A stretch of 64,000 nucleotides of DNA from an uncultured Spirochaetia bacterium (GTDB lineage: Bacteria > Desulfobacterota_D > UBA1144 > Nemesobacterales > UBA2774), in NCBI GenBank assembly GCA_964618635.1, contig CAZUDM010000012.1:2315-66314 (forward strand), written 5' to 3'. The translations under genes were made by a program, and so were the position numbers. A model generated the notes under the pieces. That model was given only the letters and a program-made list of their open reading frames with translations. It made no database searches and was not told where the DNA came from. Shown piece after piece: positions 3,415-59,207 of the stretch. Positions within the stretch are counted from its first letter, which is position 1. Every line of letters begins with the position of its first letter.

Positions 3415-6306
3415 ATGCCGCCGATGCCTGACCCGAATGTACGAACAGAGCTCGAAAAGGAGCTCGCCGCCGAGCTCGAATGCGAGATACGATTCGACAG
3501 GCTGAGCAGGGTCCTCTACAGCACCGACGCGAGCAATTACCAGATAGAGCCCGTCGGCGTCGTCATACCCCGTAGCGTAGATGATGTTTTCAAGGCGGTC
3601 GGGTGCGCGGCGAAGCATGAAATCCCGATTCTGCCGCGCGGCGGCGGGACGAGCCTGGCCGGGCAGGCCGTTGGGAAGGCGCTCGTCCTCGACTTTTCGA
3701 AATACCTGAACAGGATCGTAGAGATCGACGCCGGGGCGGGGATCGTCCGCGTGGAGCCCGGGATTTATATAGAGGGACTAAACCGCAGCATCGCGCACAC
3801 GGGGCTCATGTTCGGCCCCGACCCTTCGACGGCGAGGATAGCCACCATTGGCGGGGCCGTGGGGAATAATTCCACCGGGGCACATTCGATCCTTTACGGC
3901 ATGGCGGGGGATAACGTCGCCGCGGCGAAGGTGATTTTATCTGACGGCGGTGAGGCGAGGCTCCGGGCGTTCACTAATGGAGAGACACTAAAATCTGACA
4001 GCGCAGAGGGAGGACTCCTCTCAAAGCTCCGGCAGATAAAAAATGAATTTTCCGGGATCATAGAAACCGAATTTCCGAAGCACTGGCGGAGGGCGTCGGG
4101 CTACAGTCTCAACTACTTTCTCGAAGAGCCCTTCAATCCTGCCAAGCTCCTCGCCGGCTCGGAGGGGACGCTCGGTATCGCTTCGGAGCTTACGCTCAGG
4201 CTCGTCCCGAGGCCGAAGCACACGCGCCTCGCGGTGCTCGAATTCGCAAGCGTCGCCTCGGCCATGGAGGCTGTGACGCCCATTCTCACGCGTGAGCCGT
4301 CTGCAGTCGAGCTGATAGACTCGATGATCATAGGGCTCGCGCGCAGGCTGCCCGGGCTCGGGCGCAGGCTGACGTTTACGGGCGAAGACCCGGAGGCGCT
4401 TCTCGTCGTCGAGTTCTACGGCGAGACGGAGGCCGAAGCGGAGAAGAAGACGCGCGGGCTGGCGGCGTTTCTGGGGGAGAAAAAAATCGGATGCGGCGTG
4501 ACGTACGCCGATACGCCCGGGGAGCAGGCGGACGTCTGGGCCATACGCCGGGCGGGGCTCGGGATACTCATGAGCAGGCGCGGTGATTACAAGCCCATAC
4601 CGTGCATAGAGGACGTCTCGGTGCCCGTCTTGAGACTTCCGGAATACGTCGCCGACGTGACGGAGCTCATAGGGAGGTTCAGCACCAGGGCCGGATTCTA
4701 CGGGCACGCGAGCGCGGGCTGCCTTCACGTGAGGCCGCTCGTCAATCTGAAAACCCGGGACGGGGTTGCCGCCATGAAGGAGCTCATGGATGGGGCCTTC
4801 GGGCTTGCCCTCAAATACGGCGGCGTGATGAGCGGCGAGCACGGGGACGGGCTCCAGAGGAGCTACCTCAACGAGAGGCTCTTCGGGCCGGGACTTTACA
4901 GCGCCATGCGGAAGCTGAAGGAGGCTTTCGACCCGCGCGGTCTCATGAACCCGGGGAAGATCGTCGACTCCGCGCCGCCTGACAGTGACATGAGATTCGG
5001 GCCGGGATACTCGCCGTATGAAATTCGGACTTACCTCGACTGGTCTTCGGACGAAGGATTTTTAGGCGCGGCGGAGATGTGCAGCGGGCAGGGTGTGTGC
5101 CGAAAGCTCGGCGAGGGGATAATGTGCCCCTCCTACATGGCGACCCGCGACGAAAGAGACACGACGAGGGCTCGGGCGAACGCCCTCCGCGCTGTCCTCT
5201 CGGGAAGGGCCGAAAAAGAATTTCTCACGGGGAGCGAGATGCGGGAGGCGTTCGAGCTCTGCATCTCGTGCAAGGCCTGCAGGAGCGAGTGTCCCTCGGC
5301 CGTCGACGCGGCGAAGATGAAGAGTGAATTTCTCGCGCATTACAACGACGTTCACGGTATTTCACTCAGGGACCGCATATTCGGGAACATACACGGTATG
5401 AGCAGGGCGGCGGCAATTTTCCCAAAGCTCTCCAATGCAATTGTGGCAAGCGGGGCCGGGAAAAGCATACTGTCACGTCTCGGCATAAGCGGTAAGAGGA
5501 CTCTGCCGGCCCTGTCGCAGGAGAGCTTCACCGACTGGTTCCGAAAAAGGCCCCGGAAGCCGCGCGGTGCGGAGAGGGGAAAGGTTCTTTACTTTCACGA
5601 TACGTGGGTGAGCTACTACCAGCCGGAGGTCGGGAAGGCCGCAGTGAAGCTGCTGGAGGCCGCCGGGTTCGAGGTTATCCTCGCCGTGAAGCGGGCATGC
5701 TGCGGGCGGCCGATGATAAGTAAAGGTATGCTCAAGGAGGCGAAGAAAAATGCCCGAATAAACGCCTCGCTATTGGCTGAATATGCGAGGAACGGTATTC
5801 CGGTCGTCGGGACCGAGCCGAGCTGTGTATTGACGTTCAGGGACGAGTACCCGGACCTCCTTCCGGGTGACGAGGACGCCACTGTGCTCGCGAAAAATTC
5901 GTACCTCCTCGACGAGTTCTTATTCGGCGAGGCGGGAGACGCGATGAGTCTTATGAAATGGAAAACCGCCGGAGAGGACATTCTCTATCACGGGCACTGC
6001 CACCAGAGGGCGGTGACCGGCATTGGCGCGCCGGTGGGGCTCCTCGAGATGGCCGGGTGCGGGGTTACGGAGACGAACGCCGGGTGCTGCGGGATGGCGG
6101 GGAGCTTCGGCTATGAGAGCGAGCATTACGCCATATCGAAGGCCATAGGCGAGGACCGTCTCTTCCCCGCCGTCAGAAACGCGGCTGCCGGGACCGTCGT
6201 AGCGGCATCGGGCGTTTCGTGCAGGCACCAGATAGAGCACTTTACGGGGAGGCGTGTGAGGCACGTCGCCGAGGTGCTTGCCGAGAGGATAGACGAGGAT
6301 AATTAG
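3415..6306 (+). CDS. FAD-linked oxidase fused to an Fe-S/CCG domain (GlcD+GlcF-type, YdiJ-like 2-hydroxyacid/lactate dehydrogenase)
   Basis: 963 aa. The N-terminus carries a PCMH FAD-binding domain (ILPRGGGTSLAGQAV). The C-terminus carries 4Fe-4S motifs CxxCxxCxxxCP (CISCKACRSECPS) and CCG-like cysteine clusters (CCGRP, CCGMAG). Confidence 0.8.
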   Translation: MPPMPDPNVRTELEKELAAELECEIRFDRLSRVLYSTDASNYQIEPVGVVIPRSVDDVFKAVGCAAKHEIPILPRGGGTSLAGQAVGKALVLDFSKYLNRIVEIDAGAGIVRVEPGIYIEGLNRSIAHTGLMFGPDPSTARIATIGGAVGNNSTGAHSILYGMAGDNVAAAKVILSDGGEARLRAFTNGETLKSDSAEGGLLSKLRQIKNEFSGIIETEFPKHWRRASGYSLNYFLEEPFNPAKLLAGSEGTLGIASELTLRLVPRPKHTRLAVLEFASVASAMEAVTPILTREPSAVELIDSMIIGLARRLPGLGRRLTFTGEDPEALLVVEFYGETEAEAEKKTRGLAAFLGEKKIGCGVTYADTPGEQADVWAIRRAGLGILMSRRGDYKPIPCIEDVSVPVLRLPEYVADVTELIGRFSTRAGFYGHASAGCLHVRPLVNLKTRDGVAAMKELMDGAFGLALKYGGVMSGEHGDGLQRSYLNERLFGPGLYSAMRKLKEAFDPRGLMNPGKIVDSAPPDSDMRFGPGYSPYEIRTYLDWSSDEGFLGAAEMCSGQGVCRKLGEGIMCPSYMATRDERDTTRARANALRAVLSGRAEKEFLTGSEMREAFELCISCKACRSECPSAVDAAKMKSEFLAHYNDVHGISLRDRIFGNIHGMSRAAAIFPKLSNAIVASGAGKSILSRLGISGKRTLPALSQESFTDWFRKRPRKPRGAERGKVLYFHDTWVSYYQPEVGKAAVKLLEAAGFEVILAVKRACCGRPMISKGMLKEAKKNARINASLLAEYARNGIPVVGTEPSCVLTFRDEYPDLLPGDEDATVLAKNSYLLDEFLFGEAGDAMSLMKWKTAGEDILYHGHCHQRAVTGIGAPVGLLEMAGCGVTETNAGCCGMAGSFGYESEHYAISKAIGEDRLFPAVRNAAAGTVVAASGVSCRHQIEHFTGRRVRHVAEVLAERIDEDN

Positions 6307-47187: not shown

Positions 47188-50100
47188 TCAGTTGGTTTCG
47201 ATCGTCGGGCCGCCCGACTGGGACCTTCGGGCTATCTCCCTTATCACCGATACAAAATGGGCTATGGATATCGAGTTCCTTATCGGGTCGGACTGTATAG
47301 ACAGGTTTTTAAAGCCCAGTATGGAATTCGATATTTCGAGCTTTTTGAACGTTATAACGCCGTCATTAATATAACCTGAAATCTCTCCCGTATCATAGCT
47401 CCGGTTGGAGCCGAGTATGAGCCTCTCCTTCGCGCCGAGCTGATCGAGAAGCGCCTTGCCGATAGTCCTCTGCTCCTTGGGGGAGCTGACCGACCAGAAT
47501 TCGAACGGCCCGTTTATCGTTCCGAGCTCGCCGCCTTCGCCGGTAAGCCATATAAGACCGTTCATGCGGCCCGTGATGTATTCCTGAACGGGGGAGAGCC
47601 GCCGCGAAATGCCCTGGAGGCTTACGTCGTTAAAGAGGAAGGAGAAGTTGTACGCGCTCTTTCCGCCGCCGTAGTCGAAGAGTCCCGTGCCGTAAAGCCT
47701 GCCGCCGAAGAAATCCGATACGAGCCTTGCGATGGTCAGCTTCTCATTGTCGGCTTCGAGCTCGCACTGAACGTTCTGGAACTTGAGTATCCCGTACTCG
47801 ATTTCGCCTATCCTGAGATGGTCGAGCTCGCCTGCCGGAGGGGGGGCGTCCCGAAGGGATTTATGGTACCTGTTGTAGACGTCCCTCCCGAGCTCGAGAC
47901 CGGTGTCGAGAAAGGCGGCGAGGGGATTCTCCGCCGTGCCGCTCTCCTTTATCGTCACCGAGCCGTTTATGCCCCTGACGCTGAGGAGTGCGCCGCCCAT
48001 GTACCCGTCGTAGGAGGCGTTTTTGAGGGTGACGTCGCCCTTCCACGACATCTCGGGGCTGAAAAGGTTTACGAATTCAGCGCGCATGGCCGCGCTCCCG
48101 TCGAGCCTCGCATCCCTGACAGATGGCGGAGCAAAGGGGGCCACGAGCCGGGAAAGGCTTTTAAGGGAGACTTCGGGCATCGAAAGCCCGGTCCGTATCG
48201 GGCCGGAAAGTATATTATCCATCTCTCCCTCGACTCTCAGGGTTGTACCCTCACTATCCCTTATAAACCCCTCCCTCACTGATAAGGTTTCACCGGACGT
48301 GGCGGCGTCGAGCCCGGCCTGAAGGATGGTCTGTCCAGTGCCGTCAGGGACTGTAAGGCCGTTAAGCTCGATCCTGCCGCCGCCTTCGGGAAGCGATCCG
48401 GGCACGAGCTGTCCCGAATAATTTATACGTGCGGAGCGTATTGGAATGTCCCGGGTTCCCGACTTTATTACGGCGTTATCGAGGCCGATATTGACCGCGA
48501 GCCCCGTTCTTTCGCCGGATGTCAGTATGTCGACCTTGCCTCCGAGCTCGCCCCCGCGGAGCCTTCCGGAAATGCCGCTTATCGAGACGCCTTCCGGAGC
48601 CGGCGAGATATTCAGGGAGAGGTTTTCGATCGTTTCGGAGGTGATTGTAGTCGACGGGGATTTTATGACGCCTTCCCATCCCTTTTCGTTCTTCGAGGAA
48701 TCGAGTATCGTGAAGCGGCCGGTCATGCCTTCGGACTTTATCCTGTCGTTGATCGCGGAGAAAACGCCGCCCGAGAAGTTTATCTCGTACGGGTATCCGC
48801 CCTGCCCCTTCCCGAAAACGACCCCGGCCCTCTCGGAGGTAAACACCCCTATCGTGCTTATTTGAGCCTCGACGGCGCGTATGTCCACGGAATCGCCCTT
48901 GTAATCGTATTCTGCCGATATAGCCGGGAGCTCGATGCCGTTGAAAACCCCGTCGCCGCCCTCTATGGTGCCCGAGAATCCATTCCTGCCGCTGTCATTT
49001 ATCACGAGGTGCTCTCTGAAGCTTCCGAGTGCGGCGTCCATGCCGAGCACCCTGAAGCCAGAGCCGCGTGAGTTCATTTCAAGCGCCCAGTCGCCGCCGA
49101 GGTCGATCGCAAAGCCGAGGTCTTCAATCTGTCCGCGCTCGATAAAGTAATCGGCAAAGGACAGGTTTTCGTAGCTGAGAGATTTGTCTTTCACGGAGAT
49201 TTTTCTGTGAGGTTCGGGAGCGCCGCCCCCTGCTTCCGCCGCGCCGGAAGTATATTCGACCCTCACAGGCGCGCCGGTTGCCGCTTTCGACAGATTAAAG
49301 TTCCTTCCCTCCCCAAGGTTTATTTCGAGGCCGTTTACGACGAACGATACGTCAACGCCATATTCGCCTTCACTTCCTTTAAAATCCGCACTCAGGGATT
49401 CCGCACTGCCCCCGATATCGAGGGGAACGAGACCTTCCGGAATTTTGGAGAGGTCGAGATTCTGCCCGGCGATCTTGCCGGAGAGCCCGCTCTTTCCACC
49501 TGAGACGTCAAGCCCAAGAGAGCCCGATATTCCGCCGCCGAGGTACTTCGCGTTTAAATTCTCAAGTTTGAATTCCGCATTATTAAACGATTCGCGCGCC
49601 GCAGCGCGGACTCCCGTCGAAACGTCTTTCATTTCCCCGGCAGTACTGGAGCCGACTGATTCGGCGGAGCATTTGCCGGACGCGCCGTGAGTGAAAGGAC
49701 TGCCCAGGGCCTGCGATACATCGAGCGCGCAGCCGAGACCTCTAACGTCAATCACGCCGTCTCCATATTCGAATCCTGCGTTCTCCACCAGGAGCTTTCC
49801 TGCAAGAGCCAGGTCGTTCTTTTTGAGCGATCCCGTGATTTTTAAATCCAATGCCCTTGCGCGGCCGGAGATTCTATCGGCGTCGAGCCACGGCAGGCGT
49901 TTCACGATGTTGGAGAGATTCCCCTCGCCCGAGCTGCCGGCGAGGTCGAAAACGGCGTCGCCCGTAACGTCCCTGATTTCTCCATTGAAATTTCCCGTCA
50001 GGACGCCGAGCACGTCGAAACCTAACTTCTCGAAAGATACGACGCCGGCATCGCTGTCGAAATCGAGAATGTAGCCGAGCTCGGCGAGCCGCGGGGCTTC

Positions 50101-50889
50101 CTTATTATCATCGGCGGCCGAGAGCGTGACGGAGCCCGACGACTTTACAGTCGCCGCCGCCCGGAATTCTATCTCGGCCCTGGCCGACACATCGGCGTGC
50201 TCTCCGCCGTCTTCGTCCGGGATGGGAATACCGCTCAGCTTGCCCGCGGTGAGGACGAATTTGCCGTCCGTCTCGCCGCTCCTTAGCATTACGGAGCCGG
50301 ATATTTCTGTATCGACGCCTTTTACGTTAATATCCCCCGCGGCGTGCACTTCGTCGTAGTCCCTTTCGCCGCTTCTCTTGACGATGAGAACGTTCATCGA
50401 TTTGGACGTCAGCACGAAATCCGGAGAGACCTCGAAGACGGCATCCCTCAGCCTCACCCGTTCGACTTCTACGGATACGCCGCCCTCCCCGCCGTCGCCC
50501 TTGATGAGATTCATGAGCCTGTCGGCTGCTTCGGAGTCGTACCTGACGACGGGCTCCTCGACGTATACGTCGCCGATGCTTATCCTGCGCCCGAATATGG
50601 AGGAGATTATCGAGGGGCTAACCGTTACGCCGCCGATTTCCGCGTAGGTTTTTCCGCCGTCGGGGGAATACATGCCGAGCCCCTTTACCCTGAGCCTGAA
50701 AAGCGGGTCGAAGGAGGCGCCGTCGTAGCGGATCTTGTAACCCAGCTTGCCGGCGAATTCTTCCAGGTAGGCCGGGGCCTCGGTCCCGAGCTTCTGATTG
50801 AGAAAGATGTTCAGGGAAACGAGCGCGGCGCACAGGACAAGGAGCAAAAGGAGTATTAGCTTTACATACCCTTTCTTGAATACCGCCAT
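47188..50889 (-). CDS. AsmA-like giant membrane-anchored protein, YdbH-like
   Basis: 1233 aa. N-terminal TM anchor (LILLLLLVLCAALVSLNIFL) and a long beta-rich body. Gene order matches the E. coli ydbH-ynbE-ydbL operon. Confidence 0.55.
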   Translation of the reverse strand: MAVFKKGYVKLILLLLLVLCAALVSLNIFLNQKLGTEAPAYLEEFAGKLGYKIRYDGASFDPLFRLRVKGLGMYSPDGGKTYAEIGGVTVSPSIISSIFGRRISIGDVYVEEPVVRYDSEAADRLMNLIKGDGGEGGVSVEVERVRLRDAVFEVSPDFVLTSKSMNVLIVKRSGERDYDEVHAAGDINVKGVDTEISGSVMLRSGETDGKFVLTAGKLSGIPIPDEDGGEHADVSARAEIEFRAAATVKSSGSVTLSAADDNKEAPRLAELGYILDFDSDAGVVSFEKLGFDVLGVLTGNFNGEIRDVTGDAVFDLAGSSGEGNLSNIVKRLPWLDADRISGRARALDLKITGSLKKNDLALAGKLLVENAGFEYGDGVIDVRGLGCALDVSQALGSPFTHGASGKCSAESVGSSTAGEMKDVSTGVRAAARESFNNAEFKLENLNAKYLGGGISGSLGLDVSGGKSGLSGKIAGQNLDLSKIPEGLVPLDIGGSAESLSADFKGSEGEYGVDVSFVVNGLEINLGEGRNFNLSKAATGAPVRVEYTSGAAEAGGGAPEPHRKISVKDKSLSYENLSFADYFIERGQIEDLGFAIDLGGDWALEMNSRGSGFRVLGMDAALGSFREHLVINDSGRNGFSGTIEGGDGVFNGIELPAISAEYDYKGDSVDIRAVEAQISTIGVFTSERAGVVFGKGQGGYPYEINFSGGVFSAINDRIKSEGMTGRFTILDSSKNEKGWEGVIKSPSTTITSETIENLSLNISPAPEGVSISGISGRLRGGELGGKVDILTSGERTGLAVNIGLDNAVIKSGTRDIPIRSARINYSGQLVPGSLPEGGGRIELNGLTVPDGTGQTILQAGLDAATSGETLSVREGFIRDSEGTTLRVEGEMDNILSGPIRTGLSMPEVSLKSLSRLVAPFAPPSVRDARLDGSAAMRAEFVNLFSPEMSWKGDVTLKNASYDGYMGGALLSVRGINGSVTIKESGTAENPLAAFLDTGLELGRDVYNRYHKSLRDAPPPAGELDHLRIGEIEYGILKFQNVQCELEADNEKLTIARLVSDFFGGRLYGTGLFDYGGGKSAYNFSFLFNDVSLQGISRRLSPVQEYITGRMNGLIWLTGEGGELGTINGPFEFWSVSSPKEQRTIGKALLDQLGAKERLILGSNRSYDTGEISGYINDGVITFKKLEISNSILGFKNLSIQSDPIRNSISIAHFVSVIREIARRSQSGGPTIETN

Positions 50890-50898
50890 GCTAAGATA

Positions 50899-51402
50899 TT
50901 AAATGACCGGGTATCTATTTAAAAGCGGCAATTGTGAGCGCTGGTTAAGAGAGTTTAAAGGGACGTCGGGATTTTTGACCGGGTCTATCGTTCTGGCCCT
51001 TATGACGTTCTTGATCTTGTAGAGAAAATAACTCTTCTCCTTCCAGAACCTGCCCATTATTCTTATTTCGTCGCCCTTCGTAATGCGGGTTCCGTCGTCC
51101 TCGAAGTAAACGTTGACTACCTTGTTCCCGGAATCCTTCAGCTCGAATACGGCGAACCTTTCGCCCTTGGGCGAGCGCTTGTAATCCACCTTCGCCACCT
51201 TCCCTTCGAGCGACACCTTCAGCGTGTCGAACTTTTTGGGGTTGGCGACGACCTCGGCAATGGTAGCGTTTATGATGTTCGACCCTCTTCCGGGGGGATC
51301 GTTGTCCACGGGCTCGTTTTCACCCTGCGCGCCTGCGTAGGCCACGGGCATCGACAATAAAACCAGTATCAACAAGGCAATTATTTTCATTAGCGCATTC
51401 AC
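50899..51402 (-). CDS. Secreted hypothetical protein (possible YgiW/BOF-like OB-fold)
   Basis: 167 aa with a signal peptide. ATIAEVVANPKKFDTLKVSLEGKVAKV resembles BOF/YgiW OB-fold periplasmic proteins. Weak assignment. Confidence 0.35.
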   Translation of the reverse strand: MNALMKIIALLILVLLSMPVAYAGAQGENEPVDNDPPGRGSNIINATIAEVVANPKKFDTLKVSLEGKVAKVDYKRSPKGERFAVFELKDSGNKVVNVYFEDDGTRITKGDEIRIMGRFWKEKSYFLYKIKNVIRARTIDPVKNPDVPLNSLNQRSQLPLLNRYPVI

Positions 51403-51566
51403 TTCCTTTTAAAGCCTTACCCCGATAGTATATGCATTGAGCTCCTATATTCCAGACCCGAAGACCGAAATTCACATCCGCGGACGACGCAGGATTAATC
51501 GGGGAAGGGTTAAATAATTCCCCGCAAACGGTTAGAATTGCAGGAGAAAAAGAGGGGGATACCGAT

Positions 51567-52367
51567 ATGCCGTCGATCTTCGTTAGAAAACTTAACGGGC
51601 TTTTAAAAACGGAGCTGATGGGGAAGGTCATACACTACCACGAGGAGACGGGCTCGACGAATTCGGTGCTTTACAGGCTGGCCGAGAACGGCGCTTCGGA
51701 GGGGACAGTCGTCGCCGCCGACATGCAGACCGAGGGCAAGGGGAGGCTCGGGCGGAAATGGATCTCGCCGCCGGGCGTTAACCTCTACATGTCGGTCCTC
51801 CTCCGGCCATCCATCCCCGCTTACGAGGCTCCCCTTCTCACGTTCACCGCCTCGATAGCGCTCGTGGAGACGATGAAAAAAACGGGCATACGCGAGCCGC
51901 TCATAAAATGGCCGAACGACATAATCATCGGGGAAAAGAAAGTAGCCGGTGTGCTCACAGAAATGAAGCCCAGGGGAGACAGGGCCGAATTCGTAATAGT
52001 GGGCATTGGGGTGAACATCAACATGACCGCGGAATCCATAAGGCGCGGGATGGGCGAGGCGTCTAAAACGGCGACTTCTCTCATGGAGCACCTAGGAAGG
52101 GAAGTCGAGCGCGCCAAGTTCACGGCCGACCTTCTTTTAGAGCTCGAAGCCTGGTACCGGACATTCAACAGGCGCGGGAAGGCCTCGATACTCGGCGAAT
52201 GGGCGGAGAGGTGGGGGGCGCGCGGGAAGAGGGTGAGGGTGAGCCTCGAAGACAAGACAGCCTTTCAGGGAATCGCCGAGGGCATAGACGGCGACGGGCA
52301 CCTGCTCGTGAGGAAGGACGACGGCGAGATCGTGACAGTCGTCGCGGGGGACGTCAGCACGCTCTAG
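51567..52367 (+). CDS. birA: Biotin--[acetyl-CoA-carboxylase] ligase (class I, no HTH domain)
   Basis: 266 aa. The motifs GRLGRKW, KWPNDIIIGEKKVAGVLTE and a C-terminal SH3-like region are present. Confidence 0.85.
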   Translation: MPSIFVRKLNGLLKTELMGKVIHYHEETGSTNSVLYRLAENGASEGTVVAADMQTEGKGRLGRKWISPPGVNLYMSVLLRPSIPAYEAPLLTFTASIALVETMKKTGIREPLIKWPNDIIIGEKKVAGVLTEMKPRGDRAEFVIVGIGVNINMTAESIRRGMGEASKTATSLMEHLGREVERAKFTADLLLELEAWYRTFNRRGKASILGEWAERWGARGKRVRVSLEDKTAFQGIAEGIDGDGHLLVRKDDGEIVTVVAGDVSTL

Positions 52368-52817: not shown

Positions 52818-53831
52818 CTACTGACCGCCGCCGAGGGCCGCGATCCTTTCCCTCGCCGTAGCCGCATAGCCCGCGTACTGTCCCTGTTCGAGCGACATTT
52901 CGAGGAACTTCCTGTAATACATGATGGCCTGCTGGGCGTTGTTCTCCCTGTCGTATCCCTGTGCTATGAAAAAGTAGGAGTCGGGATAATTCGGGTTGAG
53001 AGTTATGGCCTCTTTCTGCCGGGCGATGTTCTGGTTGAACTGGTTCAGGTAGAAGTAGGTGATTCCGAGGTTCATGTATGCCGGCGCGTACTTTGGATTG
53101 AGCTGTATCGCCTTCTCGTACTCGGATATTGCGGCATTGTAGTTGCCCTGCGTCCTGAGCACCGTGCCGAAGAGGTTGTGAATCTGCGCCGAGGGGGCAA
53201 GCTCCGCGGCCTTTTTGAAATACTCGCTCGCCTGTCCGTAGGAGCGCTTCTTGAAGAAGTAGGCGTTCCCGAGCCCTATGTATGCCGGGATGTAATCCGG
53301 GTCGAGCTCGAGGACTTTCCTTATCTCGGGAGAATCGGGATTCTCGCCGCTGGCCGACCAGAGGACGAACATCGCCTCGGGGTTATTCGGATTCTGCGAG
53401 AGAACTTTTTTTGCCGTGGCTATCGCCTCTTTCTCCCAGCTGAGATGAAGGTAGCTGTAGGCGAGGGCGACCTGTGTCTGCTCGAGATTCGGACCGAGCT
53501 CGAGCGCCTTTACGATATTGTTGTACGACTGGTTATAGAAATCCTCGTAGTCTTCCTTTACCTGATACCTGTAATAACCCATGAACGAATAAACTTCGCC
53601 AAGGCCGGCATAAGCGGCGGCGTCCTTCGGGTTGGCCTGGAGCGCGCGGTTGTAAAGCGATATGGCCTCCTCGAATCCTTCCGGTGTGAACTTTAAAAAC
53701 GCCTCCCTTCCCTGCTTGTCGAGCGCGGCCGCATCCTGCGCCGATGCCTGTAAGGAAAAGAGCTGCGAGACCCCGAAAACAGCGGCGGGGAGCAGCATGT
53801 AAAGAATAAATTTTCTCATCACTACCTCCAT
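52818..53831 (-). CDS. Secreted tetratricopeptide (TPR) repeat protein
   Basis: 337 aa with a signal peptide. It contains multiple TPR units (AxxYxxLGxxYxxxGxYxxAIxxYxKALELDP-like). Confidence 0.7.
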   Translation of the reverse strand: MEVVMRKFILYMLLPAAVFGVSQLFSLQASAQDAAALDKQGREAFLKFTPEGFEEAISLYNRALQANPKDAAAYAGLGEVYSFMGYYRYQVKEDYEDFYNQSYNNIVKALELGPNLEQTQVALAYSYLHLSWEKEAIATAKKVLSQNPNNPEAMFVLWSASGENPDSPEIRKVLELDPDYIPAYIGLGNAYFFKKRSYGQASEYFKKAAELAPSAQIHNLFGTVLRTQGNYNAAISEYEKAIQLNPKYAPAYMNLGITYFYLNQFNQNIARQKEAITLNPNYPDSYFFIAQGYDRENNAQQAIMYYRKFLEMSLEQGQYAGYAATARERIAALGGGQ

Positions 53832-53861
53832 TGGGTTTACCCTCAGAAAGATTATAAATTC

Positions 53862-54395
53862 TTAATGGTAAGTCTCAAGTATGTACTTGACGATTTCCTC
53901 GGCCAGGCTCTCGTATATATCCTTCGCCATGAAGCCGAGGGAGCTGAAGCCGTTTACCTCACCCGAGGAAATCTCATCCCCCGTGGCCTTGTTGACGAGA
54001 GCGATCTTTATGGTTACCGAGACCTCGCCGAACTTGAGGGCGCCGCCCTCGAACGAAACGTCGGAGCTCGGCCTGTATTCGCTCACCTCTCCCAGGACGA
54101 CTATAGTGTCGGACGCCGGGATGTTGTCGATGTTGCCGAATTTAACTTCCTTGAACTTGTCCTTCGATTCGAGGAGCGCAGCCGCCTGCTCGGGGACCTT
54201 CGTAAGGGCCTCTTCGGGGAAGTTTACGATCTCGGTTTCGATCGCATTGAACTGAACGGCCTGGTACTGCCCTAGCTTCGTCGTCGTGGGGGTGAAATAG
54301 GAAGTAGTCTTAATATTGGTACAGCCGGGGATCGAGAGCGCAAGCAAGGCCAGCGATAATATAGCGGTACGGACGTGATTATTCGCTCTACTCAT
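53862..54395 (-). CDS. Hypothetical lipoprotein
   Basis: Lipobox LSIPGC after MSRANNHVRTAILSLALLAL. No recognised domain. Start chosen at MSRANN (54395). Confidence 0.4.
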   Translation of the reverse strand: MSRANNHVRTAILSLALLALSIPGCTNIKTTSYFTPTTTKLGQYQAVQFNAIETEIVNFPEEALTKVPEQAAALLESKDKFKEVKFGNIDNIPASDTIVVLGEVSEYRPSSDVSFEGGALKFGEVSVTIKIALVNKATGDEISSGEVNGFSSLGFMAKDIYESLAEEIVKYILETYH

Positions 54396-54503
54396 TATAA
54401 AACCTGCCTCCTTTATAAATAAGTAGTATAAAATAGCATACTTCCCGGATTTGATAAACATCAGCCGGGCAAAATCGATATATCGTTATTAAAACAGAAC
54501 GCG

Positions 54504-54548
54504 TGACATATTTTGTCAGACGTTGCGCAGCAGTGACAAAATGTGTCA
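54504..54548 (+). promoter_or_regulatory. Two TGACA-N5-TGTCA palindromes (54504-54518 and 54534-54548), the second preceded by TTGCGCAGC. Putative enhancer-binding-protein site for pilin gene 1
   Basis: Read directly from the sequence. The site lies about 125 bp upstream of the sigma-54 -24/-12 element. A conserved 30-nt block is shared with the upstream region of pilin gene 2. Confidence 0.5.
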
Positions 54549-54658
54549 CATAGTGCAGGTTTTGGGATATTCTTAATTTGACCGATGATCTTACCCTTAG
54601 AATAAACTATCGTTAAATAAAGGTATGTTATATACAGCGACCCCGAAAAAAGAGCAGA

Positions 54659-54674
54659 TGGCACGGGCTTTGCA
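54659..54674 (+). promoter_or_regulatory. Sigma-54 (RpoN) promoter TGGCACG-N4-TTGCA for pilin gene 1
   Basis: tggcacgggctttgca is an exact match to the -24 GG / -12 GC consensus spacing. The ATG lies 44 nt downstream, behind an AAAAAGGAGG Shine-Dalgarno. Confidence 0.7.
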
Positions 54675-54717
54675 ACCATTTCAATTAAATTTAATTCCGA
54701 AAAAGGAGGTTATCGAT

Positions 54718-55302
54718 ATGTCACGCAAGTTAAACAGGTGTAAGAAGGATGAGAAAGGTTTCACGCTCATAGAGCTTCTGGTCGTTGCAGCTATTATCGG
54801 CATACTACTCGCGATTGCTATACCTAACCTTATGAAGGCCAGGATGTCGGCGAACGAGGCGAATGCGAGGAAGTCCATGCAGACCCTGAGAGACGCCGAA
54901 GGCGAGTACTTCGAGCAGGATCTCGATGATGCGGGCGGAAGGGATTTCACCGACGAGATCGGTGACTTAGACACACCGGGCACTCTTAGAAGTCCGGGCG
55001 ATACCGGCGAAGAGGAAGACGCCCTCATAGACAGCAGCTTCGAAGGGGCAGACATGGCAAATGACTGCTCGGACCCGAAGGCTGGATATTGTATACAGTG
55101 GGACGAAGAAGTAGTCGCTAACGAAACGACCGGTCTTTTCGACGACTTCGGCTGGCAGACGAGTATGACCAGCTTCAACAAAACCGGCAGAAGGGACTTC
55201 TCCGTATACGGCGACGGCGCGATAAGGTGTACCGTGAGCACGCAGGAGACGAGTGCGGTGGGCACCTTCGAGGCGAATCGTGAAAGTCCGGGATGCGACT
55301 GA
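54718..55302 (+). CDS. Type IV pilin / pseudopilin-like protein (prepilin with N-methylation motif)
   Basis: The leader MSRKLNRCKKDEKG precedes the class III signal FTLIELLVVAAIIGILLAIAIPN. It has an acidic central region and two C-terminal Cys pairs. The start chosen is the internal ATG at 54718, not the ORF-track start 54625. Confidence 0.8.
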   Translation: MSRKLNRCKKDEKGFTLIELLVVAAIIGILLAIAIPNLMKARMSANEANARKSMQTLRDAEGEYFEQDLDDAGGRDFTDEIGDLDTPGTLRSPGDTGEEEDALIDSSFEGADMANDCSDPKAGYCIQWDEEVVANETTGLFDDFGWQTSMTSFNKTGRRDFSVYGDGAIRCTVSTQETSAVGTFEANRESPGCD

Positions 55303-55340
55303 CGCAGCTTCGGCTTTAGCGTAATCAAGATAGAACTACT

Positions 55341-55377
55341 AGGGAGGGATTCCGAACGGAACCCTCCCTTTTTTTAT
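55341..55377 (+). terminator. Rho-independent terminator after pilin gene 1
   Basis: Stem agggagggatt / aaccctccct with loop ccgaacgg, followed by ttttttt. Confidence 0.75.
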
Positions 55378-55418
55378 ATCTGTCGTAGCCTATTGCTTAC
55401 AGAGAAGCAATCTTGGAA

Positions 55419-55444
55419 TTGCGCAGCTTTGACAAAATTTGTCA
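55419..55444 (+). promoter_or_regulatory. TTGCGCAGC plus a TGACAAAATTTGTCA palindrome. Putative enhancer-binding-protein site for pilin gene 2
   Basis: Same motif and spacing as upstream of pilin 1. It lies about 132 bp upstream of the sigma-54 element at 55562. Confidence 0.5.
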
Positions 55445-55561
55445 TATCATTTTAAGAAAACATTCCGAGAGTCCAGAACGGCTATTTGCAGATGTAATTT
55501 AAATTAATAATAACAAGACATTAGAAGATCTTTAGAATAAAATAAGCCCTAGCGACGTTTT

Positions 55562-55577
55562 TGGTATACAAATTGCA
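55562..55577 (+). promoter_or_regulatory. Sigma-54 promoter TGGTATA-N4-TTGCA for pilin gene 2
   Basis: tggtatacaaattgca has exact -24 GG / -12 GC spacing. The -24 element is the TGGTAT variant. Confidence 0.55.
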
Positions 55578-55618
55578 ACATTATTTTGCAGGAAGCTTCG
55601 CAGGAAATGCCAAGGGTC

Positions 55619-56215
55619 ATGAACAAGTTTCGTAAGGCGAGTCACAATAAGGGTTTTACGCTTATCGAGCTGCTCGTAGTGGCGGCGATTATAGGCATCC
55701 TGCTGGCGATAGCGATTCCTAATCTCCTGAAGGCACGCATATCCTCGAACGAGGTAAACGCGAGAAAAGCGCTCCAGACACTCAAGGACGCCGAGTACGA
55801 ATACTTCGAACAGGACCTCGACGACGACGGGACGAGAAACTTCACGAATCTTGTCGGCTCGATGGGAGCGGCGGGAAGTCTCAGGGACCCGGCGGGAACC
55901 GACGACGAGCAGGACGCCCTCATAGATATTACGTTCGAGTACGCAGTTGTGGAAGACGGCAGCGCAGCCGGAGAAGCGGACTGCACCGACCCCAAGGCCG
56001 GGTACTGTCTTTCCTGGAGCGACGATGCCGAAGTCGACGACGTCGCACTCCAGGGCGACTTCGGATGGGAGGCCTCGATGACGAGCGCCAAGGTTAATGG
56101 CAGGAAAGATTTTTCGGCTTTTGCCGACAAAGTCATAAAGTGTACGGTCACGACTCAGGACTCCGGCTCCGTCGGCACGTTCCAGTCGTCGAGAACCGAT
56201 TCGGACTGCGACTAA
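55619..56215 (+). CDS. Type IV pilin / pseudopilin-like protein, paralog of the 54718 gene
   Basis: MNKFRKASHNKG|FTLIELLVVAAIIGILLAIAIPN. It has the same architecture and Cys pattern as pilin 1. Start chosen at the ATG with an AAGGG Shine-Dalgarno. Confidence 0.8.
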   Translation: MNKFRKASHNKGFTLIELLVVAAIIGILLAIAIPNLLKARISSNEVNARKALQTLKDAEYEYFEQDLDDDGTRNFTNLVGSMGAAGSLRDPAGTDDEQDALIDITFEYAVVEDGSAAGEADCTDPKAGYCLSWSDDAEVDDVALQGDFGWEASMTSAKVNGRKDFSAFADKVIKCTVTTQDSGSVGTFQSSRTDSDCD

Positions 56216-56305: not shown

Positions 56306-57256
56306 ATGTCTGATGCGCTTCGTATTACAAATCTCGTAAAGGATTACAAGACCGGCTTTTTCGGGAAGATGACCCGGGTGCTCAGGAACGTGACGTTCTC
56401 GGTGGAGCGGGGGGAGATCTTCGGATTCATAGGCCCGAACGGCGCGGGCAAGACCACCACCTTTAAATCTATACTCGGGTTCGCGAAACCCACGGAAGGA
56501 AGCATCGAGCTTTTAGGCAGGGATTCGGAAGATCCCGACGCCAAGCGCAAGATAGGCTACCTTCCCGAAAACCCTTACTTCTACGATTATCTCACAGGCG
56601 AGGAGCTGCTTATATACATGGGCGAGCTTCATGGGCTCGGGCGCAAATTCCTGGAAGTGAAGGCGGGCGAGCTTCTGGAGAAGGTGAGAATGTCCCACGC
56701 CAGAAAGGTGCAGATGAGAAAGTACTCGAAGGGCATGCTCCAGAGAATAGGGATCGCGCAGTCGCTCATAAACGACCCCGAGTTCATAATCCTCGACGAG
56801 CCGATGAGCGGGCTCGACCCGATAGGAAGGCGGGAGATAAAGGACCTGATACTGGAAGAGAAGAGAAAGGGTAAGACAATACTTTTAAGCTCGCACATGC
56901 TTTCCGACGTCGAGGCGCTATGCGACCGCGTCGGGATAATAATGGGCGGAACGCTCATAAAGACCGGAAGCCTCGGCGAGCTGCTCAAGGAAATCCACAC
57001 GGATTACGAGATGCACGTCGAGGGCTCTCCCGAGGAGGTGAAGGGCTCCGTCAGGGGGATGCCCGTCGAGATGGAGCACAGGGCCGGATACATCGTGCTC
57101 AAATTCGACGAGGACATAAGGCGCCAGGTGATCGAAGCCGTCGCGAAAACGCCGGCCGGAATCATATCGCTTCATCCGGTGAGAAGGTCGCTCGAAGGAC
57201 TCTTCGTCGAGGAGGCGAAGAAAGAGAGCCCCGTGCGTGAAGGTGCGGGAGGATGA
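56306..57256 (+). CDS. ABC transporter ATP-binding protein (ABC-2 type)
   Basis: 316 aa. Walker A GPNGAGKTT, signature MLQRIGIAQSL, Walker B IILDEP. Confidence 0.85.
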   Translation: MSDALRITNLVKDYKTGFFGKMTRVLRNVTFSVERGEIFGFIGPNGAGKTTTFKSILGFAKPTEGSIELLGRDSEDPDAKRKIGYLPENPYFYDYLTGEELLIYMGELHGLGRKFLEVKAGELLEKVRMSHARKVQMRKYSKGMLQRIGIAQSLINDPEFIILDEPMSGLDPIGRREIKDLILEEKRKGKTILLSSHMLSDVEALCDRVGIIMGGTLIKTGSLGELLKEIHTDYEMHVEGSPEEVKGSVRGMPVEMEHRAGYIVLKFDEDIRRQVIEAVAKTPAGIISLHPVRRSLEGLFVEEAKKESPVREGAGG

Positions 57257-57303: not shown

Positions 57304-58107
57304 ATGAGAAGGATTCTAAGCGTTGCGCACAATACGTTCATCGAAGCGATAAGGGACAGGGTACTCTACAGCCTGGTCCTCTTCGCTCTCCTTATGATAG
57401 TGAGCTCTCTCGTGTTCGCCAGCATATCGGCAGAGCAGTACAACAAGATCGTAAAGGACCTCGGGCTCACCGCCATTTCGATAATCGGAATACTGCTTTC
57501 CGTCTTTCTAGGCATAGGACTCGTCTACAAGGAGGTCGAGAAGAAAACCGTTTACAACATATTCTCGAAGCCGGTAAGAAGATACGAGTTTATACTCGGG
57601 AAGTATCTCGGGCTTGGCCTCACGCTTTTCGTCATCACGCTCGGAATGGCGCTCATACTTTTCCTTATAGTCCTTTACATAGAGATAAAATACGCGGGGC
57701 TGATAAAGTTTTACTACGGCGGGCATTTCTACGCGGAATTTTTTAACGCCATATATTTCGAATACCTGGAATTCCTGATTATAATCGGGATCGCGCTCGT
57801 TTTTTCCAGCTTCACGACTCCTGTCATGAGCGCGCTCTTCACCTTTTTCGTTTTCGCCATAGGGAGATTTTCAAGCGACATAAGGCTCTTCGCGGAAGAG
57901 GTCAAGAATCCCGTCACGGCTGTTTTCTCAGAGGTGATTTACAGGGTGATCCCGAACCTCGAGAAATTCGACGTCAGGAACGAAGCCGTCTACGGGGGCG
58001 TCGTAAACCCTGACCTCATACTCTATACGACCGTCTACGCCATCATATACAGCGCCGCGCTCCTGATACTCGCGATAATCATATTCGAGAAAAAAGAATT
58101 CAAGTAA
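57304..58107 (+). CDS. ABC-2 family transporter permease
   Basis: 267 aa. Six predicted TM helices. Sits directly downstream of the ABC ATPase. Confidence 0.7.
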   Translation: MRRILSVAHNTFIEAIRDRVLYSLVLFALLMIVSSLVFASISAEQYNKIVKDLGLTAISIIGILLSVFLGIGLVYKEVEKKTVYNIFSKPVRRYEFILGKYLGLGLTLFVITLGMALILFLIVLYIEIKYAGLIKFYYGGHFYAEFFNAIYFEYLEFLIIIGIALVFSSFTTPVMSALFTFFVFAIGRFSSDIRLFAEEVKNPVTAVFSEVIYRVIPNLEKFDVRNEAVYGGVVNPDLILYTTVYAIIYSAALLILAIIIFEKKEFK

Positions 58108-58115
58108 GTGACGCC

Positions 58116-59207
58116 GTGAAACAAGGTAGAACGACGACCATACTGGGCCTTCTCGCCATCGCCGCGCTCATTGCGGTCTCTATACCGTTTCAGGTGAGGA
58201 TAGACGACATAAGGGGGAAGTTCCGCTCGGTCGAGGAGAGCCTTTATCTAACCTCTTCGTCCCTCAAAAAAATCTCACTCGGATATACGGAGCTGCTCTC
58301 GGACATATACTGGATGAGGGCGATCCAGTATTTCGGGAGTAGAAAAACCGGGGAGCAGAACCCGGAGCTCCTCTACCATTACTTCGACATAATAACCGAC
58401 CTCGATCCGCGGTTCGTTAATGCCTACAGGTACGGCGGCACGTTCCTCGCCGAGCCCGAGCCGTTCGGGCTCGGGAAGTTCGACATGGGCGTCTCGCTTC
58501 TGGAGAAAGGGAGGAAGAACAACCCCGAAAATTTCAGGCTGCCACTCGAAGAGGCGTTTCTCTACTACTTTTACCCGAAGGACTACGGGAAGGCGGCCGA
58601 GCTTTTCAGAGAGGCCGCCGAAACCCCCGGGCTCTCCAGGTCGAGGCAGGCGTCCGTCAAGGGAATGGCGGCCGCGGCGCTGGCAAAGGGCGGGAACAGG
58701 GATCTCTCGAAGGAGATCTGGCAGATAATCTACGAGACGAGCCCGAGCGAGGGGAGACGTAACTTCGCGTTCCGGAACCTCCAGGAGATCGAGACCATGG
58801 AAATGGAGGACGAGCTCACGGCAGCGCTTCTCGAATACCGAAAGAGATATGGAAAGCTGCCGGGCTCGGTCAAAGAGCTTGCGGCCGCCGGGTACGTCAA
58901 AGGCGGTATTCCCGAAGCTCCTATAGGCGGGGAGTTCGTAGTCGCGCCCGACATCGATGCGGTGCGCAATACCGAGCTGGCATCGAGAAAGTTAAAGGAA
59001 GCGCTTGCATTTCTCAACGGCAAGTCCAACAGGTTCAGGAAAATATACGGCGAGTACCCGAGGGATTTAAAAGAGCTCGAGGTGTTCGTGAAAACCGAGA
59101 CGACGGGAGAGTACCCCGTACATCCCATGGGAGAAGAATACCTTTACAACCCCGAGTCCGGAATAATCGAGTCGAAATGGAAGTACGAGAAAGAAGGGGA
59201 GCAGTAA
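58116..59207 (+). CDS. Hypothetical N-terminally membrane-anchored protein (helical/TPR-like), last gene of the pilin-ABC string
   Basis: 363 aa. The N-terminal TM helix is TILGLLAIAALIAVSI. No recognised domain. Confidence 0.4.
   Translation: MKQGRTTTILGLLAIAALIAVSIPFQVRIDDIRGKFRSVEESLYLTSSSLKKISLGYTELLSDIYWMRAIQYFGSRKTGEQNPELLYHYFDIITDLDPRFVNAYRYGGTFLAEPEPFGLGKFDMGVSLLEKGRKNNPENFRLPLEEAFLYYFYPKDYGKAAELFREAAETPGLSRSRQASVKGMAAAALAKGGNRDLSKEIWQIIYETSPSEGRRNFAFRNLQEIETMEMEDELTAALLEYRKRYGKLPGSVKELAAAGYVKGGIPEAPIGGEFVVAPDIDAVRNTELASRKLKEALAFLNGKSNRFRKIYGEYPRDLKELEVFVKTETTGEYPVHPMGEEYLYNPESGIIESKWKYEKEGEQ

Follow-up and report, generated by a model that had tools for sequence, protein, structure and literature searches.

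In an uncultured Dadabacteria-like bacterium, two tandem genes for type IV pilins each follow a -24/-12 element, and a TGACA-N5-TGTCA palindrome lies further upstream of each. This arrangement raises the question of which activator switches the two genes on. The PilS-PilR/sigma-54 circuit is known to act at the major pilin gene (PMC6528607; PMC6058289). In commensal Neisseria, pilE requires RpoN and IHF, together with Npa, a PilR homologue bound at an upstream activator sequence (PMC6528607). The PilR site of Pseudomonas aeruginosa is TGTGACACTTTTTGACA, and N. meningitidis pilE carries TGACAAAAAATGTCA approximately 112 bp upstream of its -24/-12 element (PMC6755734). Published PilR consensus sequences are mixed and include TGT-N11-ACA, and TGT-N11-AGA with GTCT elements. 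No usable sequence was found in the literature on the PilR motifs of Geobacter, Lysobacter, Rhodanobacter, and P. syringae. To our knowledge, a PilS-PilR circuit has not been described in a Dadabacteria-like lineage. In this study, we examined the pilin locus in its 64-kb window (the whole stretch of DNA that was analyzed), in orthologous loci, and in metagenomes.

The pilin genes and their flanking elements

The tandem pair of paralogs described in the original prediction was borne out. Both genes encode the prepilin N_methyl motif (PF07963 and TIGR02532, above threshold), and their products are 55% identical (Table 1). The class III signal peptide ends in G and is followed by FTLIE with Glu5 and a hydrophobic alpha-1 helix, as in type IV (a) pilins. 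The best NCBIfam and PDB matches of pilin 1 were Myxococcus PilA and the Geobacter pilin, in the N-terminal part only, and its relatives form a large family in Dadabacteria/Thermodesulfobacteriota MAGs. Four invariant cysteines are present (C117, C125, C171, and C193). The predicted structure of pilin 1, a poor model (pLDDT 65), consists of a helix (residues 17-66) followed by beta strands; a Foldseek search of this model against the PDB gave only noise. A profile search of the genome contigs with the full pilin alignment was dominated by the universal GFTLIELLV motif and returned no orthologues. The type IV pilus assembly genes pilB, pilC, pilD, and pilMNOPQ were not recognized among the subset of window ORFs that was scanned. 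Both start codons lie one base earlier than implied originally. Homology with the orthologous locus L088 makes a second in-frame ATG possible for pilin 2.

Table 1. Coordinates of the pilin locus features within the window
Feature	Position	Strand	Description
Divergent conserved neighbours	52818..54461	-	337-aa TPR protein (52818-53831) and 199-aa lipoprotein (53862-54461)
Enhancer site A for pilin 1 (predicted)	54504..54518	+	Palindrome TGACATATTTTGTCA; 140 bp 5' of the -24 element
Enhancer site B for pilin 1 (predicted)	54534..54548	+	Palindrome TGACAAAATGTGTCA; 30 bp past site A, 110 bp 5' of the -24 element
Putative sigma-54 promoter of pilin 1	54659..54674	+	TGGCACGGGCTTTGCA; TGGYAY-N5-TTGCW match; predicted transcription start ~54685
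Ribosome-binding site of pilin 1	54703..54710	+	AAGGAGGT; read from the sequence; GGAGGT core invariant in the orthologue alignment
Pilin 1	54718..55302	+	194-aa type IV prepilin; leader ...EKG/FTLIELLVV; PF07963 N_methyl
Intrinsic terminator after pilin 1	55342..55375	+	GGGAGGGAUUCC-GAAC-GGAACCCUCCC, then seven U; hairpin 55342-55368
Enhancer site for pilin 2 (predicted)	55430..55444	+	Palindrome TGACAAAATTTGTCA; 117 bp 5' of the -24 element; inside the shared block 55419-55444
Putative sigma-54 promoter of pilin 2	55562..55577	+	TGGTATACAAATTGCA; TGGYAY-N5-TTGCW match; predicted transcription start ~55588
Pilin 2	55619..56215	+	198-aa paralogue of pilin 1; PF07963 N_methyl; alternative in-frame start 55607
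ABC transporter ATPase	56306..57256	+	PF00005; probably co-transcribed with pilin 2
ABC-2 family permease	57304..58107	+	PF12679; synteny kept in every orthologous locus
363-aa membrane-anchored accessory protein of the ABC module	58116..59207	+	No family match; syntenic in all orthologous loci

TGACA-N5-TGTCA occurs exactly three times in the window (0.02 expected) and TGGYAY-N5-TTGCW exactly twice (0.10 expected). Every one of these matches precedes a pilin gene. The elements predicted before both genes are all present, and chance alone would give far fewer. A 26-nt block, TTGCGCAGCnnTGACAAAATnTGTCA, is shared by the two upstream regions (54523 and 55419; 0 expected). A block of 30 nt had been described as duplicated upstream of gene 1; what is duplicated there is the 15-nt palindrome, in two copies 30 bp apart. 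Perfect -24/-12 elements had also been claimed for both genes. This description fits promoter 1, which is a perfect TGGCAC-N5-TTGCW consensus with GG and GC 10 nt apart. Promoter 2 keeps GG and GC, but its -24 element is TGGTAT, two positions off the consensus. An IHF consensus scan found nothing convincing between the enhancer and promoter 1, and a single, unconvincing one-mismatch match (55511) before promoter 2.

Pilin 1 is followed by a strong intrinsic terminator (-30.4 kcal/mol, z = -4.1; hairpin and seven U), as predicted, which a simple terminator scan missed because of a bulge. GC-rich hairpins stand at the same position in the orthologous loci, most of them followed by a T run. In the region after pilin 2, nothing terminator-like was found; hence, the proposed read-through from this gene into the ABC genes is plausible. 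These genes encode an ATPase, an ABC-2 permease, and an accessory protein beside the pilin, with synteny in 11/11 loci, and form a PilGHI-like module; PilGHI are ABC-transporter-like proteins (PMC6060248). The likeness to M. xanthus pilA-pilG-pilH-pilI is one of gene content, a pilin followed by such a module, and gene order may differ. On the other side of the pilin genes, nearly every orthologous locus keeps the lipoprotein and the TPR protein in synteny, and the latter matches PilW/Tgl below threshold.

Conservation in orthologous loci and in metagenomes

A comparison of the region upstream of pilin 1, covering 11 orthologous loci whose genomes range from 39 to 62% GC, shows conservation at just four features: both palindromes, the -24/-12 element, and the ribosome-binding site. 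Complete Dadabacteria-type genomes with an orthologous locus include ENA ERZ25072999 ctg321914_67x_c (2.67 Mb), ERZ25039558 contig_17617 (2.79 Mb), and ERZ25071330 ctg580741_527x_c (3.12 Mb). Mean column identity is 0.82 at site A (orthologue form TGACAAAWTTTGTCAC), 0.77 at site B (orthologue form gACAAAAAnTGTCAC, at a spacing of 29-30 bp), 0.86 at promoter 1, and 0.94 in the ribosome-binding site region (54702-54710), versus 0.44-0.55 in the spacers. A full promoter 1 match lies 57-63 nt 5' of the ATG in 10/11 loci; in L091, the -12 element is TTGTA, and L093 is without a recognizable palindrome. No further palindrome or -24/-12 match was found in ten 10.6-kb orthologous loci. Neither the window nor these ten loci showed rpoN or an activator gene, and the existence of both proteins is therefore assumed. 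Since the window holds no activator gene, the activator is placed outside it, as originally proposed, and rpoN would likewise lie outside.

Metagenomes were scanned for the composite of palindrome, N110-140, and TGGYAY-N5-TTGC, which gave at least 122 matches in at least 120 loci. Among the matches listed, a prepilin gene follows the composite directly in 96 of the 113 that were assessable. Judged by their N-terminal sequences, the pilins after these listed matches are of proteobacterial, Geobacter-like, Acidobacteria-like, and Dadabacteria types. The gap from palindrome to -24 element peaks at 118-120 bp among the matches listed, and the window's 110, 140, and 117 bp differ from this peak. 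Seventeen listed matches do not precede a pilin gene; about half of the 12 inspected lie inside genes and are chance-like, and those at L112, L115, L127, and L134 may be true targets other than pilins. The composite thus marks pilin genes throughout metagenomes, and its elements are conserved islands in the 11 orthologous loci, which upholds the original reading of the elements as sigma-54 promoters with enhancer sites.

Of the 66 listed matches with 1.5 kb or more of DNA before them, 22 have the 3' end of a co-oriented activator gene a short distance upstream. The encoded proteins belong to the NtrC family, and most have the C-terminal helix (S/T)(F/Y)RxxR(Y/H)R. Their NCBIfam matches were AtoC, NtrC, and ZraR, all below threshold; NCBIfam is without a PilR model. 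One locus, L190, has the order PilS (6TM_PilS), PilR (REC, Sigma54_activat, HTH_8), palindrome, promoter, pilin, ABC module, and PilD. Its ABC module, between pilin and pilD, is homologous to that of the window, with identities of 46% for the ATPase, 37% for the ABC-2 permease, and 26% between the 363-aa protein and a TPR-containing ORF in the same position.

Alternative readings of the elements

The elements of pilin 2 could be a decaying duplicate, with promoter 1 alone at work and with pilin 2 and the ABC genes transcribed from another promoter or by read-through. The non-consensus -24 element of promoter 2 would suit such decay, and of the nine loci in which a start was called for the second pilin, four (L083, L084, L091, and L093) are without this promoter. 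The shared 26-nt block suggests that the region was duplicated along with the gene, and in the single-pilin locus L081 the ABC genes lie downstream of one pilin gene with a P1-type promoter. However, TGGTAY-N5-TTGCW and the palindrome have been kept in the other five loci (the window (W), L086, L087, L088, and L094) despite diverged intergenic surroundings. The palindrome is kept in L086 and L088, and partly so in L087 and L094. The intact GG and GC dinucleotides also speak against decay, read-through past the strong pilin 1 terminator is unlikely, and tandem pilin genes, each with a palindrome and promoter of its own, recur in unrelated lineages (L098 and L161). We therefore consider a defunct promoter 2 unlikely, and read both promoters as functional candidates.

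A second question is what binds the palindrome. The original prediction had held that the activator may be lineage-specific, since the palindrome differs from NtrC sites. In its stronger form, this would mean an enhancer-binding protein unrelated to PilR, with a merely coincidental likeness to other pilin promoters. It accords with such a protein that neither the window nor any Dadabacteria-type locus shows a pilR gene linked to the pilins, and that the missing NCBIfam model makes a direct PilR assignment impossible. Nevertheless, an equal palindrome stands at an equal distance from the -24/-12 element before the pilins of several unrelated lineages, and in the 22 listed loci noted above, which belong to different pilin lineages, it directly follows pilR-like genes, including the PilS-PilR pair of L190. 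TGACA-N5-TGTCA also agrees with the P. aeruginosa PilR site at 9/10 core bases and with that of N. meningitidis class II pilE at 10/10 (sequences from PMC6755734). The distances of 110 and 140 bp at promoter 1 and 117 bp at promoter 2 fall within the 80-150 bp expected of PilR-type sites. The palindrome is thus a widespread PilR-type site, the idea of a lineage-specific activator was not sustained, and a binder unrelated to PilR is quite improbable.

That the palindromes are instead repressor operators or parts of a sigma-70 promoter, with -24/-12 matches arising by chance, is hardly credible: weak TTGTCA-18-CAAAAT matches do overlap the palindromes, but they score 9/12 and are over 170 nt away from the start codon, and the sigma-70 scan gave four matches in all, near the shuffled mean of 1.9, whereas the -24/-12 element is at a fixed distance in 10/11 loci, has a single further match in the 64 kb, and belongs to a composite that is tied to activator genes in nature.

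Proposed control of the two pilins and its implications

Judged from the sequence evidence, both pilins are in all likelihood controlled by sigma-54 promoters that a PilR-type response regulator of the NtrC family, encoded outside the window, switches on. We read palindrome and promoter as a PilR-type enhancer and a sigma-54 pilin promoter, an ordinary case of the known circuit with no new mechanism. Activator dimers would bind TGACA-N5-TGTCA at two sites 30 bp apart before pilin 1 and at one site before pilin 2, centred approximately 145-175 bp upstream of the predicted transcription starts. The bound activator would form an ATPase ring and reach, by looping, the closed sigma-54 holoenzyme, which would pass into the open complex. 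Pilin 1 appears to be a unit of its own, and its consensus promoter, strong ribosome-binding site, and strong terminator give the profile expected of an abundant major pilin. Pilin 2 probably heads an operon with the ATPase, the ABC-2 permease, and the accessory protein of the PilGHI-like module, because it has the weaker -24 variant (TGGTAY) and no terminator.

The locus resembles the pilin genes under PilS-PilR control (pilA of P. aeruginosa, G. sulfurreducens, and M. xanthus, and Neisseria pilE under Nps-Npa) in having a -24/-12 promoter directly before a type IV pilin gene and an inverted repeat with a TGACA/TGTCA core approximately 110-140 bp upstream. It departs from them in several respects. 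Neither pilS nor pilR is linked to the pilins of this locus, unlike in Geobacter and Myxococcus, where the two genes sit immediately upstream of the pilin gene. At promoter 1 the site is doubled, at a spacing of 30 bp, each of the tandem pilins comes with a copy of the module, and no IHF site was recognized. The geometry of the NtrC sites at glnAp2 is well established, and the present sites share with it a dyad, an A/T-rich 5-bp centre, two sites approximately three helical turns apart, and a position over 100 bp 5' of the -24/-12 element; the half-site (TGACA versus TGCACC) and the target genes differ.

A wider proposal, which we put forward tentatively and hold to be somewhat short of an even chance, is that one deeply conserved PilR operator, approximately 119 bp upstream of the -24/-12 element, is common to Proteobacteria, Geobacter-like Desulfobacterota, Acidobacteria-like bacteria, and Dadabacteria. 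It would be read by the co-conserved helix (S/T)(F/Y)RxxR(Y/H)R, and the two pilins of Dadabacteria would be under an unlinked PilR, acting through promoters of deliberately different strength (TGGCAC versus the conserved TGGTAY). If this were true, the conserved operator would be far more uniform than the mixed published consensus sequences, PilR regulons would be predictable in uncultured phyla, and Dadabacteria would make pili of two types or adjust the ratio of their pilins.

Among the matches listed, the composite predicts a pilin gene approximately 85% of the time, across distant pilin lineages, and is therefore useful for the annotation of pilin genes and PilR regulons. For this uncultured candidate phylum, the analysis provides a sequence-level prediction of how type IV pilins are switched on, in which the enhancer sites, the promoters, the terminator, and the operon boundary are placed precisely.

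Tandem pilin genes and their upstream regions

Two tandem pilin genes lie on the forward strand of the window, and the features around them are listed in the table. TGGYAY-N5-TTGCW occurs only twice in the 64 kb window (0.10 copies expected) and TGACA-N5-TGTCA only three times, at 54504, 54534, and 55430 (0.02 expected). The tandem pilins, -24/-12 elements, and upstream palindromes of the original prediction were confirmed. The pilin start codons are present, but one base earlier than had been implied. Both elements had been called perfect; promoter 1 is a perfect consensus, but promoter 2 is not. Upstream of pilin 1, the 15-nt palindrome is present twice, 30 bp apart, but the 30-nt block is not duplicated there as claimed. 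A 26-nt block, TTGCGCAGCnnTGACAAAATnTGTCA, is common to 54523 and 55419. The strong terminator expected after pilin 1 was recovered as a hairpin that a simple terminator scan overlooked because of a bulge; no structure was found in the 90 nt downstream of pilin 2 (z = -0.3). A search for an IHF site at promoter 1 was negative, and no frame of the window encodes an enhancer-binding-protein motif (GAFTGA, Walker A).

Features of the pilin region and neighbouring genes (window coordinates)
Feature	Position	Strand	Description
AsmA/YhdP-like protein, 1233 aa	47188-50889	-	Precomputed Pfam matches of syntenic orthologues, not of the window protein
Biotin-protein ligase	51567-52367	+	Precomputed Pfam matches of syntenic orthologues, not of the window protein
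Promoter 1	54659	+	TGGCACGGGCTTTGCA, begins 59 nt 5' of first ATG
Pilin 1	54718-55302	+	ORF, 194 aa, prepilin leader ...KG/FTLIELLVVAAIIGILLAIAIPNL
Terminator hairpin after pilin 1	55342-55368, then seven U	+	-30.4 kcal/mol, z = -4.1
Promoter 2	55562	+	TGGTATACAAATTGCA, begins 57 nt 5' of second ATG
Pilin 2	55619-56215	+	ORF, 198 aa, prepilin leader ...KG/FTLIELLVVAAIIGILLAIAIPNL

Full-length identity between the two pilins is 55%, and the N-terminal methylation motif PF07963 scored above threshold in both. A protein search revealed a large family of full-length homologs (60-100% identity), whose named sources are metagenome-assembled genomes of Candidatus Dadabacteria or Thermodesulfobacteriota. 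In the family alignment, the N-terminal helix and four cysteines are invariant. Conservation of the pilin 1 family is unusually high for a pilin (63-88% full-length identity among 18 aligned orthologues from other genomes). The family has an acidic C-terminal domain, for which neither sequence nor fold comparison gave a match among pilins of known structure. Of the curated families and solved structures, Myxococcus PilA and the Geobacter pilin matched best, over the N-terminal part alone and with scores under the family cut-offs. A low-confidence structure model (pLDDT 65) shows a long helix and then strands, as expected; a fold search with it was uninformative. No further prepilin was found in any frame of the 64 kb window. 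An alternative in-frame start of pilin 2 is possible at ATG 55607 (MPRVMNKF...), with which the called start of one orthologue (L088) aligns; given an inferred transcription start at ~55588, the leader would be only ~19 nt.

Genes for a 199-aa lipoprotein and a 337-aa TPR protein (52818-54461, minus strand) diverge from pilin 1, and their synteny extends to nearly every orthologous locus. Below threshold, the TPR protein matches PilW and Tgl, which are TPR lipoproteins involved in pilus biogenesis; it may be a pilotin-like factor of the window's pilus system. The AsmA/YhdP-like and biotin-protein ligase genes (47188-52367) are unrelated to the pilin promoter finding.

Conservation in orthologous loci

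Ten further loci were obtained by exact protein look-up, giving 11 with the window, from genomes of 39% to 62% GC. Leftward, the gene order is lipoprotein and TPR protein; rightward, it is one or two pilins, ABC ATPase, ABC-2 permease, and a ~356-aa protein, and greA and carB come next, 3' of the ABC module, in most loci. TGGCAC/T-N5-TTGCA is located 57-63 nt upstream of the pilin 1 ATG in 10 of the 11 loci. The exception, L091, has TTGTA at -12 (4945-4965, GC 62%: TGGCACGTTACTTGTA), GT replacing GC. In L093 (4581-5000, GC 39%), the promoter is kept and the palindrome is unrecognisable, with only ...AAAAAATTCAC. Conservation of the palindrome upstream of orthologous pilins, on which the original prediction had been staked beforehand, was found. 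The pilin 1 upstream alignment contains four islands: site A (TGACAAAWTTTGTCAC, mean column identity 0.82), site B 29-30 bp downstream of A (gACAAAAAnTGTCAC, 0.77), the -24/-12 element (TGGCACgngcnTTGCA, 0.86), and the ribosome-binding site (AAGGAGGT, 0.94); the spacers have no consensus (0.44-0.55). No additional palindrome or -24/-12 match occurs across the ten 10.6-kb orthologous loci. Neither rpoN nor pilSR was found in these loci or in the window.

Upstream of pilin 2, TGGTAY-N5-TTGCW and the palindrome are kept in the window, L086, L087, L088, and L094 (palindrome partial in L087 and L094), and both are absent in L083, L084, L091, and L093. A less likely possibility is that promoter 2 is a decaying duplicate, since it is missing from four of the nine loci in which a second pilin start was called; retention of the TGGTAY variant in five diverged loci and the terminator 3' of pilin 1 weaken this reading. 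Terminator-like hairpins follow pilin 1 in orthologues as well. A sigma-70 promoter or repressor operator in the palindrome region has no support.

The palindrome-promoter composite in metagenomes

Metagenomes were scanned with the pattern TGACAWWWWNTGTCA-N{110,140}-TGGYAYNNNNNTTGC. At least 122 matches in at least 120 stretches were obtained, against a roughly estimated chance expectation of only a handful. Nine of the 122 matches listed were too near a contig end to judge. Among the matches listed, a prepilin gene lies directly downstream in 96 of the 113 assessable, and these pilins fall in several unrelated classes by N-terminal sequence, among them a class with AYQDYTIRAQVSEG, as is typical in gamma- and beta-proteobacteria, a Geobacter-like class (NFIAYRNKSFC), an Acidobacteria-like class (GFSLIELLIVVAIIL...NLMRSRMAANE), and, in L097, the Dadabacteria type. 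The palindrome to -24 gap has a sharp maximum at 118-120 bp, which accounts for 32 of 58 distinct pilin sites among the matches listed; this non-uniformity within the searched 110-140 bp range suggests that helical phasing is strict in many lineages. The window's own gaps are 110, 117, and 140 bp, versus this peak.

The duplicated architecture of the window recurs in an unrelated lineage: L098 (397-1548) and L161 (two matches ~880 bp apart) carry two proteobacterial-type pilin paralogues in tandem, each paralogue having a palindrome and a TGGCAC-N5-TTGC promoter to itself. Possible PilR targets other than pilins are four intergenic matches, L112:4789-8672, L115:1181-2088, L127:941-1899, and L134:1112-1578, which precede genes for a 1201-aa secreted protein (beside a kinase/regulator pair), for two signal-peptide proteins, and for a 75-aa protein. 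Of the other non-pilin matches listed, about half fall within genes and look like chance.

In published systems, the Pseudomonas aeruginosa upstream activator sequence is quoted as TGTGACACTTTTTGACA (PMC6755734), alternatively as TGT-N11-ACA (PMC8035640) or TGT-N11-AGA with GTCT elements (PMC6058289). TcTGACAaaaaaTGtCA, which PMC6755734 places ~112 bp 5' of the -12/-24 sequence in Neisseria meningitidis class II pilE, is the same palindrome as the window's. In commensal Neisseria, pilE activation is described as involving RpoN, IHF, and Npa, a PilR homologue bound to an upstream activator sequence (PMC6528607). Judged by this distribution, the palindrome is not lineage-specific. A lineage-specific activator had originally been suggested as a possibility; in the form of one unrelated to PilR, it is contradicted by the literature and by the metagenome matches.

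Among the matches listed, a same-strand activator gene ends just upstream of the palindrome in 22 of the 66 that have 1.5 kb or more of DNA upstream. Most linked activators share a C-terminal helix, ...LLG(L/I)(S/T)(F/Y)R(Q/S)(L/F/M)R(Y/H)R..KLG. NCBIfam, which has no PilR model, places them in the NtrC/AtoC/ZraR group below equivalog thresholds. A high-GC (69%) metagenomic locus, L190:1636-10420, contains a full pilus cluster, in this order: PilS (6TM_PilS, PAS, HisKA) and PilR (REC, Sigma54_activat, HTH_8); palindrome, sigma-54 promoter, and pilin; ABC ATPase, ABC-2 permease, and TPR protein; the prepilin peptidase, PilD, and then a minor pilin of GspH/FimU-like type. The locus's ABC ATPase, ABC-2 permease, and TPR protein are 46%, 37%, and 26% identical to the window's trio; hence, the window's ABC genes are tied to pilus biology. 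Myxococcus PilGHI are ABC-transporter-like proteins of a pilus cluster (PMC6060248).

Proposed regulation of the pilin genes

The sequence comparisons establish the motifs, how rare and how conserved they are, and that they are associated with pilin and pilR genes. In the proposed mechanism, a PilR-type response regulator encoded elsewhere would bind as dimers to the palindromes, whose centres lie some 145-175 bp 5' of the inferred starts (~54685 and ~55588), oligomerise, reach the sigma-54 holoenzyme by DNA looping, and drive open-complex formation. Pilin 1, which has a consensus promoter, two sites, a strong ribosome-binding site, and a terminator, is probably the major pilin, expressed in abundance. 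Pilin 2 lacks a terminator and has a weaker -24 variant that is conserved; it is probably the first gene of an operon that includes the PilGHI-like ABC module. On sequence grounds, a well-preserved PilR-type enhancer and sigma-54 promoter module, present twice, is the predicted driver of type IV pilin genes in this Dadabacteria-like genome. The module is an example of an already known type of control; it is chiefly of use in annotation, since pilin genes are predicted across phyla by the composite motif.
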